Shown here: piece by piece, positions 39,001-42,000 of the stretch
How the letters are laid out: each line of letters opens with the position of its first letter
Position numbering within the stretch: position 1 is the stretch's first letter
NCBI RefSeq assembly: GCF_055900595.2
Contig: NZ_CM148325.1
Length of the DNA: 64,000 nt
Strand: one strand, 5' to 3'
Made by a program: the position numbers

Positions 39001-42000
39001 TGTCGATTTGCAGCAGCGCACTCTTTCGTACAGCCAGAATGTGGCGGATACTAGTTGAGCAGATAACGTCCGTATGTCCGTTGACCAGTTCCGGGCGGGA
39101 GATTGTGATATCTGACATCATCGTTTTTCCTTTTGGTTTATAAACGAAAACGCCAGCCGTATTCAGGCTGGCGTCAGTGGAATAAAGTCTGGTGAGTAAG
39201 ACTCACCTGTTCTGTTGCAGAAGCTGCAGTTGGCGCAGGGTACGGATATCTTCCCTGGCCTGTTCAATGCAGGGCAGCAGTGCTGCTGAATCCGTTTTAT
39301 CCTCATCGTTGTCGAAGATAATCCCTGATTCGCAGTCAATATTGTCCTGCAGCCACGCAATCAGAATATCCAGCGCTGTTTCCGTGGTTAATGATTTCAT
39401 GTTGTGAATTTCCGGGTTACCAGTCGAAAGTGGGTAAATCCGGCAGGCATTCAGCGCTGGCATCCAGATGAATGAGACTGACGCCATAACGTCGGGTAAG
39501 TGTGACAACCAGACGGCGGAACGTTTTTGACAGCCCCAGGCGTTTAAGCCGCAGAACCGGGTATGACCACGCATCGGTACGTAACAGATATCCGCTACCT
39601 GTAAAATGAATCCATTCTGATTCGCCGGTGTCATTCGTCTGATGCGACAGCGAGTACAGCCAGGCGTTGTCTGTTTCCGTGATATGCGCGGTACTACAGC
39701 GTATACCGCTCAGGGCAGCAGAGGGGGGTATGCTGTCTGTTGAGGTCCGGTCAGATTCATCAACAACACGAAGGGAGTAGCCATTATCGCAGACCACGTT
39801 AATCAGTTCGGCAAGCTCAACACCATCGACGTCAACGACAATTCGCCCCATGTTCAGTGCCTGTACGTTAACGCTGTCAGCTTCCAGCGTCAGGGCCAGT
39901 TTCATCGTTTTGCCTCCGGATGCTTGCCCTGGGTAATGTTATTTACCATTCTGTAATTGTTCCGGGTCATCAGGCCGGTCGCCCTGCGAGCCCGGAGAAT
40001 ATCAATGCTGTTGATTAACTGCGACGGGGCTCCTGCGCTGAATCCCGGCTGGTCGGTACGTACCAGCGCGTATTTTTCAACGAGAAAGTTCACCGCGTCA
40101 CACAGTGAAATCCCTGCCTCAATATGCTGCTCAATCACACGTTCATCAGCGAACGGTGTGTCATTCAGCGTGAGGCCATAGTGCTGGTCCAGCAGTCGGG
40201 TGAGCAGTGTCTGCCAGATGGTGACGGGAGACGGGCAGCGCGATGCCGCCCGTACGTGTGTGTCGGGTAATGTTTTCATACTGAAGATTTTCCTGATATG
40301 CAGATATAAGAAATGGAAAAGTGGCGTGGAGAAAGCACCAGGCCGGAGCAGAAGACTATTCCGGAGGGTTACTTTCCGTTTCGGTCGCAGGATAAACAGC
40401 CAGATAAACGTAACCACAGGACCCGAGGGTGTCGGCATCGCAGGTCAGCCCTTTCGCATACAGCGTGACGGTATGCTGATGGCGGGGATTCAGTTCACCG
40501 CTGGTGAGCATGAGTTCCAGTTGTTTCATCAGCAGTGGAAAAGCCTGGTCCAGATGGTATGCATCCGCATTGCTGAACCGGCCCCTGATACCGGCGCGGT
40601 CTGCAAGGTAATGCAACCGGTTACCCTCCTGCAACAGACGGGCGCCGAAACAGGGCGTCACGGTGCAGGGCAGCCCCCACCAGGGGCGGTCTTTGTTGTC
40701 GTCGGGAAGCGTTGTTCCGGGGAGTGTGTCCGACATGATAAAATCCTCACAGAAAATCGGTGAATGATAGTTTAACGATGACGGGTCAGCCGGCGCGCAG
40801 ATCGGCTTCGGTGAAGGTATATTCGTTGATGAGAAGGGCCTCATCCACAGCGGTGTCTGAGGTCAGCCAGTCGTACTTGTTTTCCAGCTGGCGGTACAGC
40901 CAGAAGGCCAGGTCGCGCAGGGCTTCGCTGACAGCGGCTTCCGCATCGGTTGTCATTGCCTGACCAGTCGGACTGTTCCGGGTGACGGTGATATCCATGC
41001 TGTACGGATGGCAGTAACGTCCCCGGTGACTGATTTCAGCCTGAAGCTGCCAGAAGTTACGTTTCTGCACCGCATGCAGGGTATCCGCGATACGATGAAG
41101 CTCACGGTCCTGAGGGGCATATTCCCTGATTTTCCGGGGTGTCGCTGGCTGCCAGTGCCAGTGCCCTTCAAAACAGGCTCCGTCCCCCTGGCTGCAGAAT
41201 CCGCTGAACCAGATGCACGGCTCTTCCATAAACCTGCCGTTGCTGAGCCGGAAAACGCGCTGGCGGAGGTCAATTCCGAAAATGCCACAGACCTCCCTGA
41301 AGTCCTCATACACGTTTTCATACCAGTTGCTGTCAGCATGATGCTGACGGTACCAGTCGCGGGCTTTTTCCTGTGCGGTGGAGGATAGCTCATGCAGTGT
41401 ATACACGGTGGTGGTGATAATTCTGCTCATCAGAATGCCCTTACTGACTCAGTTCAGAGTGACGCTCATCAGCCGGACATACGGGCCAAAACTGTCCTTA
41501 CGGCGTTCAGCAAATACGGCCAGCACACCGGGAATATCCTGCACTTCACGACCGGTATACGTTTCAGTGCTGCCGTGCCAGCGGTATTTGCCGGTACAGA
41601 ACGGAAAAAGACGGGATGCAGGATGCTGTTGGTGAATACGCATGGCTTCACCACGGGTGATGATTTTCATAATGGGATACCTCTGAAGACAGAAGATAAA
41701 AGTGAAAACAGGTGTGATGTGGTTGTGACGGGTTAAAGCAGACCATGTTCGGCAAAGGAGAAAACCTGGCTGCCACCGACTATCAGATGGTCCGGCACCC
41801 GGATATCCACCAGGCCCAGTGCCTGTACCAGACGTTCCGTGATAAGCCGGTCTGCCTTGCTGGGTGTGACTTCACCGGACGGGTGATTGTGCGCCAGTAC
41901 CACGGCAGCGGCATTGTGGTACAGGGCGCGTTTAATCACTTCCCGGGGATGGACTTCCGTGCGGTTGATGGTGCCGGTGAAGAGGGTTTCACCGGCAATC

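Follow-up and report, generated by a model that had tools for sequence, protein, structure and literature searches.

The closest described counterpart of the locus presented here is the yeeRSTUVW region of the Escherichia coli K-12 island CP4-44, which contains the toxin-antitoxin pair cbeA-cbtA. The toxin CbtA blocks polymerisation of FtsZ and MreB, and CbeA opposes it not by binding the toxin but by bundling the FtsZ and MreB filaments. A third small gene inside a toxin-antitoxin operon is a feature of tripartite systems such as toxin-antitoxin-chaperone (TAC) and omega-epsilon-zeta. Genes of other kinds also gather on mobile elements: the leading regions of conjugative elements collect antirestriction, methyltransferase and toxin-antitoxin genes along with numerous uncharacterised families, and roughly one in ten of these families also occurs in phages (PMC11541004).

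The window analysed here, a 64,000-nucleotide stretch of contig NZ_CM148325.1 (assembly GCF_055900595.2), carries a version of this region in which a gene for a 214-aa protein lies between the yeeT-like gene and cbeA. The comparisons below show a genuine gene that is a frequent but dispensable part of the CP4-44-type block, and a protein that is an ordinary, already catalogued member of a very large uncharacterised family.

Architecture of the locus

The features of the block are listed in Table 1. The window and other E. coli strains share a co-linear arrangement, DUF932 - ArdB/KlcA-like - RadC - DUF987 - [214 aa] - CbeA - CbtA - DUF5983 - DUF957 - DUF4942, which places the locus among the CP4-44-type conserved blocks. 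The DUF987 (yeeT-like) and RadC genes stand upstream in the same order as in K-12, as the initial annotation had proposed, and the encoded proteins are 86% (CbtA), 87% (CbeA), 96% (YeeT) and 92% (YeeS) identical to those of K-12 CP4-44. Neither the DUF932 gene nor the antirestriction gene is present at the K-12 locus.

Table 1. Genes and spacer of the CP4-44-type block, in window coordinates
Feature	Position	Strand	Evidence and remarks
DUF932 gene	42765..43583	-	PF06067 E 2.8e-51; opens conserved block
ArdB/KlcA-type antirestriction gene	42225..42710	-	PF03230 E 2.4e-37
yeeS-like RadC/JAB gene	41733..42224	-	PF04002 E 1.5e-44
yeeT-like DUF987 gene	41449..41670	-	PF06174 E 3.7e-39; 96% identity to K-12 YeeT
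214-aa gene, DUF8835 / PHROG 5162 family	40786..41430	-	ORF; RefSeq CDS WP_000086757.1; phrog_5162
Spacer, 49 nt, 214-aa gene to cbeA	40737..40785	-	sequence
cbeA (YeeU-family type IV antitoxin), 126 aa	40356..40736	-	PF06154 E 6.2e-54; RefSeq annotation
cbtA (YeeV-family toxin), 125 aa	39902..40279	-	PF06755 E 1.9e-61
yeeW-like DUF5983 gene	39417..39905	-	PF25638 and PF19419; 4-nt overlap with cbtA
DUF957 gene, 65 aa	39203..39400	-	RefSeq annotation of identical locus; no Pfam match
DUF4942 gene	38273..39121	-	PF13708 E 2.4e-68; closes conserved block

The identification of the toxin-antitoxin pair is secure. A PF06755 toxin directly follows a PF06154 antitoxin on the same strand after a gap of 76 nt, both matches are above the curated cut-offs, and together with the 86-87% identity to K-12 they confirm the CbtA/CbeA assignment first made by inspection. 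This degree of identity suggests that the window pair would have the cytoskeletal activity of its K-12 counterparts. Scans of the locus for promoters and terminators returned matches no commoner than in shuffled sequence; a single promoter-like hexamer pair at 40764-40735, in the spacer that precedes cbeA, is of a kind that does not exceed the shuffled frequency.

The 214-aa gene is genuine

Several independent features identify the ORF as a protein-coding gene. Comparison with two further copies from E. coli gives a dN/dS of 0.23-0.31, beside 0.26-0.28 for cbeA, so that the gene is under purifying selection much like that of cbeA. Its GC content at the three codon positions (GC1/GC2/GC3 = 0.58/0.45/0.68) is similar to that of neighbouring genes, an AAGGG ribosome-binding site precedes its ATG, which lies 18 nt from the yeeT-like stop codon, and homologues with 57-62% protein identity are found in Salmonella, Klebsiella and alpha-proteobacteria. 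The ORF is not a product of chance, and the concern that codon usage and conservation might fail to support coding is thereby removed. E. coli FDAARGOS_448 is 100% identical to the window across the gene, which RefSeq labels there as hypothetical protein WP_000086757.1. The additional gene reported between the yeeT-like gene and cbeA thus stands, as does the observation that it bears no recognisable motif: scans against Pfam, NCBIfam and PADLOC gave no match, the Pfam and NCBIfam sets used being ones without a DUF8835 model.

K-12 carries a deletion scar

The gene had been described as an extra one, inserted into the island and possibly cargo. Its absence from all three K-12 CP4 islands and the lack of any Pfam motif in its product are what such an origin would predict, yet comparison with K-12 CP4-44 argues strongly for the reverse. 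In CP4-44, yeeT is followed directly by cbeA across a spacer of 73 nt, and this spacer retains ATGAGCAGAATTATCGCCACTACCG. The ribosome-binding site, the ATG and the first 8 codons of the 214-aa gene are all preserved in it, with about 25 nt of the ORF. Homology between K-12 and the window ends 25 nt into the ORF and restarts 26 nt past its stop codon; most of the 49-nt spacer is preserved within the scar. The DNA on both flanks of the gene is 87.5-94% identical. The 645 nt lost from K-12 are nearly the entire gene; therefore, K-12 is a deletion derivative. A second, independent deletion of the gene is found in strain JNE170426.

The gene is widespread in E. coli. A set of 5426 complete genomes has it in 2016 (37%), at 2921 places, compared with 12897 places for DUF987 genes and 13478 for cbeA-cbtA pairs, which puts it in roughly one in five of such modules. 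The compact junction without it occurs in 3918 genomes. K-12 and most E. coli carry a version from which the gene has been deleted, and the gene was not inserted at this locus. That it came in recently as cargo, and in this island alone, is very improbable, given the K-12 scar, the wide occurrence of the gene, the selection acting on it, a base composition the same as that of its neighbours, and 18-nt and 49-nt flanking spacers in which no repeats or mobile-element ends are seen. The initial annotation had itself allowed that the ORF might be a standard member of the island family, and this is what it proves to be.

Family, names and predicted fold

The 214-aa protein belongs to the DUF8835 / PHROG 5162 family and shows no differences from it: it matches phrog_5162 over residues 2-210 of 214 (E 2.9e-36) and has the conserved motifs of the family. 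Its exact sequence is found in at least 1000 contigs, and the family comprises 3400 cluster representatives (50% identity clusters) at E<=1e-3. Among 119 diverse members, 90% or more keep the motifs FSGFxSQGDGAxFxG, H141 and W177/Y179, and the polar residues E14, Q81, D83, H141 and N202, all in loops, are nearly invariant (each in at least 90% of the 119). The median isoelectric point of the family is 4.7 and its net charge -16.6; the protein encoded in the window is no more than mildly acidic, with a pI of 5.6 and a charge of -7.7. An AlphaFold model with a pLDDT of 96.3 presents a compact, single alpha/beta domain. The family consists of mostly acidic, single-domain alpha/beta proteins of about 210 aa, for which no related structure has been solved. 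Querying PDB sequences with the protein or its profile gave chance matches only (E>0.4), Foldseek of the model against the PDB found none at E<=1e-3, and against BFVD it found uncharacterised phage proteins only. A Pfam scan of the 119 aligned relatives at E<=0.1 produced scattered noise. Longer members of the family (P0138 and others) have no recognisable additional domain, and domain fusions therefore give no functional clue.

Several names are in circulation. Copies from E. coli with 92-96% DNA identity appear in RefSeq as 'hypothetical protein', as 'antitoxin of toxin-antitoxin stability system' and, in the newest records, as DUF8835, and one phage record names a family member 'YeeU-like antitoxin'. 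The second of these names usually belongs to Phd/YefM-type antitoxins (COG naming), to which neither the 214-aa protein nor its 119 relatives can be assigned, there being no consistent Pfam match; in the contexts examined, family members are mostly without an adjacent toxin gene. Homology to CbeA is ruled out as well, by the lack of a Pfam match and by an hhalign probability of 0.3% between the 119-member alignment and an alignment of CbeA. Searches of the literature for the RefSeq name, DUF8835, phrog_5162 and WP_000086757 returned nothing relevant, with no function, structure or publication among the results, and papers on pheV/pheU islands name YeeS, YeeT, YeeU and YeeV with no mention of the 214-aa gene.

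The family beyond CbtA/CbeA islands

Outside these islands, the family is represented by 95 records of phages and 111 of plasmids, mostly alpha-proteobacterial. CbtA, by comparison, was found in phages in 1 doubtful record, and on plasmids in Enterobacterales only, plus one Plesiomonas. The alpha-proteobacterial copies examined, which share about 60% protein identity with those of E. coli, lie in the backbone of conjugative elements beside ArdC-like, DUF2958, ParB-N, strawberry-notch and toprim genes. The neighbours of phage copies are small genes with no assigned function, and some of these copies lie within terminal repeats; the carriers include lytic and jumbo phages. Integrative islands, conjugative elements and lytic or jumbo phages are thus the vehicles of the family, which for the most part is not accompanied by CbtA/CbeA. 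No partner gene shared across the island, conjugative-element and phage contexts was found. The conserved 138-aa gene upstream in the alpha-proteobacterial conjugative elements was considered as a relative of CbeA or DUF987, and no relation to either was found.

Relation to the toxin-antitoxin pair

The main rival to an accessory role on mobile elements is a tripartite operon, in which the enterobacterial protein would join CbtA and CbeA as a third component and serve as second antitoxin, as chaperone or to modulate either of the two. The gene is always found between DUF987 and cbtA, yet in three different orders: [214]-CbeA-CbtA in E. coli, CbeA-[214]-CbtA in Klebsiella, and CbeA-CbeA-[215]-CbtA in Salmonella diarizonae, where it overlaps cbeA by 4 nt. 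Adjacency preserved despite rearrangement suggests coupling to the pair, and the tight spacing or overlap in three enterobacterial lineages could mean a true link. A dN/dS resembling that of cbeA and the absence of any terminator-like site found between the genes point the same way. In many assemblies, in-frame read-through alleles with a shortened 49-nt spacer fuse the 214-aa gene to CbeA in a 343-aa product. These are read-through alleles of adjoining genes and were rejected as an independent domain fusion; PGAP treats the allele as a pseudogene, and CbeA would still be made from its own GTG start.

Against this proposal, the gene is missing from about four-fifths of the modules in E. coli, and the K-12 CbtA/CbeA pair is reported to function as toxin and antitoxin in its absence. 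The likeness to TAC and omega-epsilon-zeta likewise ends with gene position, for most CbtA/CbeA modules do without the third gene, its product has no SecB-like or regulator-like domain, and the family lives mostly away from CbtA. An AlphaFold prediction of a single chain joining the protein to CbtA through a glycine-serine linker gave a pTM of 0.62, roughly the value expected of two undocked domains; with only 6 paired rows this is a weak test, which says no more than that confident docking was not seen. The earlier suggestion of an alternative antitoxin or chaperone therefore finds the evidence leaning against it, through the lack of CbeA homology, the abundance of the family where CbtA is not found and the lack of any sign of docking. 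We consider a third component unlikely.

Proposed function

The reading we prefer, with a probability of about 0.4, is that the protein would be an accessory protein of mobile elements that serves their establishment or acts against host defence, independently of the toxin-antitoxin pair. Independence is argued by the presence of the family in phages and alpha-proteobacterial plasmids where CbtA is nearly absent. The protein would be soluble and act on its own, and co-transcription with the toxin-antitoxin genes would come about only through a shared array of small genes. Its probable task is to aid establishment of the element or, as its antirestriction neighbours do, to oppose a function of the host. 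This functional part is guilt by association, and we hold it with low confidence. The family shares its element types with ArdA, ArdB/KlcA, ArdC and Ocr, with ArdB/KlcA-like neighbours in E. coli and ArdC-like ones in alpha-proteobacterial conjugative elements; like those proteins its members are small, soluble and mostly acidic, and they also occur in phages. It differs from them in showing no sequence or fold similarity, and the 214-aa protein could not be placed with ArdA, ArdB/KlcA or ArdC by Pfam domain or fold. Neither homology, nor structural match, nor PADLOC ties the family to any defence system. The chromosomal islands considered here are not known for conjugative transfer, and a role in establishment may therefore be vestigial in them.

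The conserved patch formed by S-G-F-x-S-Q-G-D-G-A-x-F-x-G, H141, W177/Y179 and N202/F206/G210 is a putative binding or catalytic site. Were it catalytic, the protein might be an enzyme such as a metal-dependent hydrolase, or one that modifies nucleic acid or a nucleotide signal, with the Q81-G-D83-G loop, H141 and N202 as its putative site. The near-invariant loop residues, the compact and confidently predicted domain and a cross-phyla conservation that is high for a mobile-element gene are consistent with such an activity. No Pfam enzyme family was matched, even by the 119 members at E<=0.1, and no enzyme fold by structure; we regard an enzyme as improbable. Broader than the accessory role that we favour is the tentative and rather doubtful possibility that DUF8835 is a new anti-defence or host-takeover class, with a fold unseen in the PDB and common to alpha-proteobacterial conjugative elements, enterobacterial CP4-type islands and lytic or jumbo phages, or else an enterobacterial third partner of the cytoskeleton-targeting CbtA/CbeA module.

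Implications

The 214-aa gene belongs to the ancestral CP4-44-type block and is no oddity of this island. With a deletion scar for its yeeT-cbeA spacer, K-12 misleads as a reference for such islands. The labels 'antitoxin of toxin-antitoxin stability system' and 'YeeU-like antitoxin' lack a basis in homology and should not be propagated. A large and well-conserved family with a confidently predicted fold and no solved relative, confined to mobile elements and phages, is a reasonable if unexceptional candidate for an anti-defence screen or for structure determination.

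Genomic Context and Coding Status of the 214-aa ORF

The 214-aa ORF lies within a ten-gene block (see table) whose YeeS, YeeT, CbeA, and CbtA proteins are 86–96% identical to those of the K-12 island CP4-44. At the DNA level, the gene is 100% identical to its counterpart in E. coli FDAARGOS_448, a uropathogenic strain that carries the block with agn43 on one side and the kps capsule genes on the other. These matches, along with the Pfam matches of CbtA and CbeA, confirm the initial annotation's coordinates and description of cbtA, cbeA, and the ORF.

Genes of the CP4-44-type block in the window
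Feature	Position	Strand	Match
DUF932 gene	42765-43583	-	Pfam
ArdB/KlcA-type antirestriction gene	42225-42710	-	
RadC/JAB gene	41733-42224	-	
DUF987 (yeeT-like) gene	41449-41670	-	
214-aa ORF	40786-41430	-	
cbeA	40356-40736	-	Pfam, far over curated cut-off
cbtA	39902-40279	-	Pfam, far over curated cut-off
DUF5983 (yeeW-like) gene	39417-39905	-	
DUF957 gene	39203-39400	-	
DUF4942 gene	38273-39121	-	

The ORF is a real gene. It has the ribosome-binding site AAGGG, starts 18 nt past the stop codon of the yeeT-like gene, and ends 49 nt ahead of cbeA. Its GC content at the three codon positions (0.58/0.45/0.68) follows the pattern of every neighbouring gene, and its dN/dS values of 0.23 and 0.31 against two other E. 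coli copies are comparable to those of cbeA (0.26–0.28). Full-length homologues, 57–62% identical, are found in Salmonella, Klebsiella, and many alpha-proteobacteria.

A sigma-70-like hexamer pair (TTCACC, 18 nt, TATCAT) lies at 40764–40735 in the spacer directly upstream of cbeA, which might also allow cbeA–cbtA to be transcribed without the 214-aa gene. Shuffled sequence yields matches of this kind at least as often. At the island end, a DUF6088 (AbiEi-like) gene and, after it, a nucleotidyltransferase toxin gene of AbiEii/AbiGii type that is frameshifted according to RefSeq (37076–38204) look like a decayed AbiE-type module, and a Haematobacter plasmid carries an intact DUF6088–AbiEii pair near a member of the 214-aa family. 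Separating the island from the kps capsule genes, the region 35500–36500 contains a 30% GC stretch (35500–35999) and an IS110 transposase fragment.

Insertion or Deletion

The initial annotation regarded the gene as an extra insertion between the yeeT-like gene and cbeA. This is not borne out. By megablast, the gene occurs in 2016 of 5426 complete E. coli genomes, at 2921 places; the yeeT-like gene occurs at 12897 places and the cbeA–cbtA pair at 13478, so roughly one-fifth of modules carry it. None of the three CP4 islands of K-12 does. The 73-nt yeeT–cbeA spacer of CP4-44 (comparison locus L002, 11040–11112) contains ATTCTGATGAGCAGAATTATCGCCACTACCG, in which the 214-aa gene is represented by its ribosome-binding region, its ATG, and its first eight codons. 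This spacer corresponds to window positions 41448–41406 and 40760–40737: homology extends from yeeT 25 nt into the ORF (41406) and picks up again 26 nt past its stop codon (40760). K-12 is thus a deletion derivative that lost 645 nt. The scar in its spacer contradicts a recent cargo insertion, which is highly improbable. Of the 5426 genomes, 3918 carry the compact junction; the deleted form is therefore commoner than the intact one. Within the CP4-44-type block, the 214-aa gene is conserved and common yet dispensable, and K-12 has deleted it.

Deletion has occurred more than one way. In E. coli JNE170426 (L020, 3001–3551), an independent event joined 82 nt of the 5' end of the gene to a C-terminal yeeU fragment, removing most of both the 214-aa gene and cbeA and leaving cbtA intact without an adjoining antitoxin gene. 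Furthermore, a set of database proteins (P0001, P0038, and P0044) comprises an antirestriction N-terminus fused to a C-terminal part of the 214-aa protein, a 214-aa N-terminus fused to the C-terminal part of DUF5983, and an ORF in which residues 5–73 are duplicated internally. These suggest either frequent, recurrent illegitimate recombination and deletion inside the block or assembly artefacts. Finally, in a read-through allele (L022, 4001–5032; L025, 942–1973) the ORF lacks its stop codon and some of the spacer and continues in frame into cbeA. Its 342–343-aa product matches PF06154, and its junction is found at ≥99% identity in at least 35 complete genomes; PGAP annotates it as a pseudogene and a separate YeeU with its own GTG start.

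Protein Family and Predicted Structure

The initial annotation recognised no motif in the protein, and no model in the Pfam, NCBIfam, and PADLOC copies searched matches it. PHROG 5162, of unknown function, does (E 2.9e-36). In RefSeq, the E. coli copies go under "hypothetical protein" or "antitoxin of toxin-antitoxin stability system"; the most recent records name a DUF8835 domain-containing protein. An exhaustive HMMER search (E≤1e-3) gave 3400 representatives of 50%-identity clusters, nearly all single-domain proteins of 200–225 aa. Three clades (E. coli, Salmonella/Klebsiella, and alpha-proteobacterial) are about equidistant, near 60% identity. Most members are acidic, with a family median of 4.7 for pI and −16.6 for charge; the copy in the window is less acidic (pI 5.6, charge −7.7).

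With the family alignment as input, AlphaFold2 predicts the structure with very high confidence (pLDDT 96.3, pTM 0.89). The predicted fold comprises an N-terminal helical hairpin, a six-stranded beta meander, and two helices, followed by a beta hairpin bearing the conserved histidine and a long pair of helices at the C-terminus. PDB sequence and profile searches found nothing, and a viral structure library returned uncharacterised phage proteins only; the fold is confidently predicted and has no solved relative. Among 119 diverse aligned members, the stretch FSGFxSQGDGAxFxG is nearly invariant, as are H141, W177, Y179, N202, F206, and G210. An enzyme using this QGDG/His site is rather improbable, though compatible with the accessory role proposed below.

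Relationship to CbtA/CbeA

The "antitoxin" and "YeeU-like antitoxin" names have no basis in homology: aligned against CbeA, the family reaches a profile–profile probability of 0.3%. The PF06154-bearing read-through allele is a plausible source of the name. The family member of phage K64-1 (L003, 3001–3612) is labelled "YeeU-like antitoxin".

A rival reading would have the protein recruited in Enterobacteria as a third component of the toxin–antitoxin pair. In favour of a link, enterobacterial copies are invariably placed between DUF987 and cbtA, although in three different orders: 214–CbeA–CbtA in E. coli, CbeA–214–CbtA in Klebsiella michiganensis and relatives (L011–L013, 8610–9996), and CbeA–CbeA–215–CbtA in Salmonella diarizonae, with a tandem cbeA pair and a 4-nt overlap (L016, 5293–7084). 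The family, however, occurs in 95 phage and 111 plasmid records, mostly away from any CbtA; in phage and plasmid records, CbtA itself is found in one doubtful 3.2-kb phage record and only in plasmids of Enterobacterales, plus one Plesiomonas plasmid. The phages are jumbo phages of Escherichia, Klebsiella, Salmonella, and Erwinia, along with Caulobacter, Acinetobacter, and Pseudomonas phages. Most of the plasmids are alpha-proteobacterial, and the copies examined there sit in a conjugative-element backbone: integrase, ArdC-like metallopeptidase, DUF2958, ParB-N protein, a 138-aa gene, the family member, strawberry-notch helicase, toprim, DUF2493, DUF736, RepA/ParA, DUF3363 protein, TraG, and Trb genes. 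The three settings (island, conjugative element, and phage) have no neighbour in common. A linker-joined (glycine–serine) AlphaFold model with CbtA gave pTM 0.62, roughly the value expected of two undocked domains, a weak negative from a crude test with 6 paired rows. A third partner is unlikely; the family is large, catalogued, borne by mobile elements and phages, and does not depend on CbtA/CbeA.

The conserved 138-aa gene overlaps the family member by 8 nt (L004, 7592–8008; L009, 8592–9008; the two copies 77% identical). Its product has no Pfam match and resembles neither CbeA nor DUF987; the gene may be coupled to the family member in translation, as a partner peculiar to the alpha-proteobacterial lineage. 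In phages K64-1 and Av-05 (L007, 5712–5924), a small gene downstream is labelled "phosphoribosylpyrophosphate synthetase". The products are 119 and 70 aa, respectively. Such a synthetase is expected to be far longer than 70 aa and the Av-05 product has no Pfam match, so its label is probably wrong.

Proposed Role and Significance

With low confidence, we propose that the 214-aa protein is a stand-alone accessory protein that would aid a mobile element or phage on cell entry, through anti-defence or host manipulation. Its neighbours (ArdB/KlcA-like and ArdC-like antirestriction, methyltransferase-like, and toxin–antitoxin genes), the early-type small phage genes around family members, and the family's acidity fit this role. 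The proposal agrees with the leading regions of conjugative elements, which gather antirestriction, methyltransferase, and toxin–antitoxin genes along with many uncharacterised phage-shared families (PMC11541004). It is less likely than not that this is a novel anti-defence family or a genuine third toxin–antitoxin partner. Thousands of annotated genomes already contain the gene, its family, and its island position, and a DUF number has been assigned; none of this is new in kind. The useful results are that the K-12 arrangement is a deletion scar, that the "antitoxin" label lacks a homology basis, and that the family has a confidently predicted fold without a solved relative.
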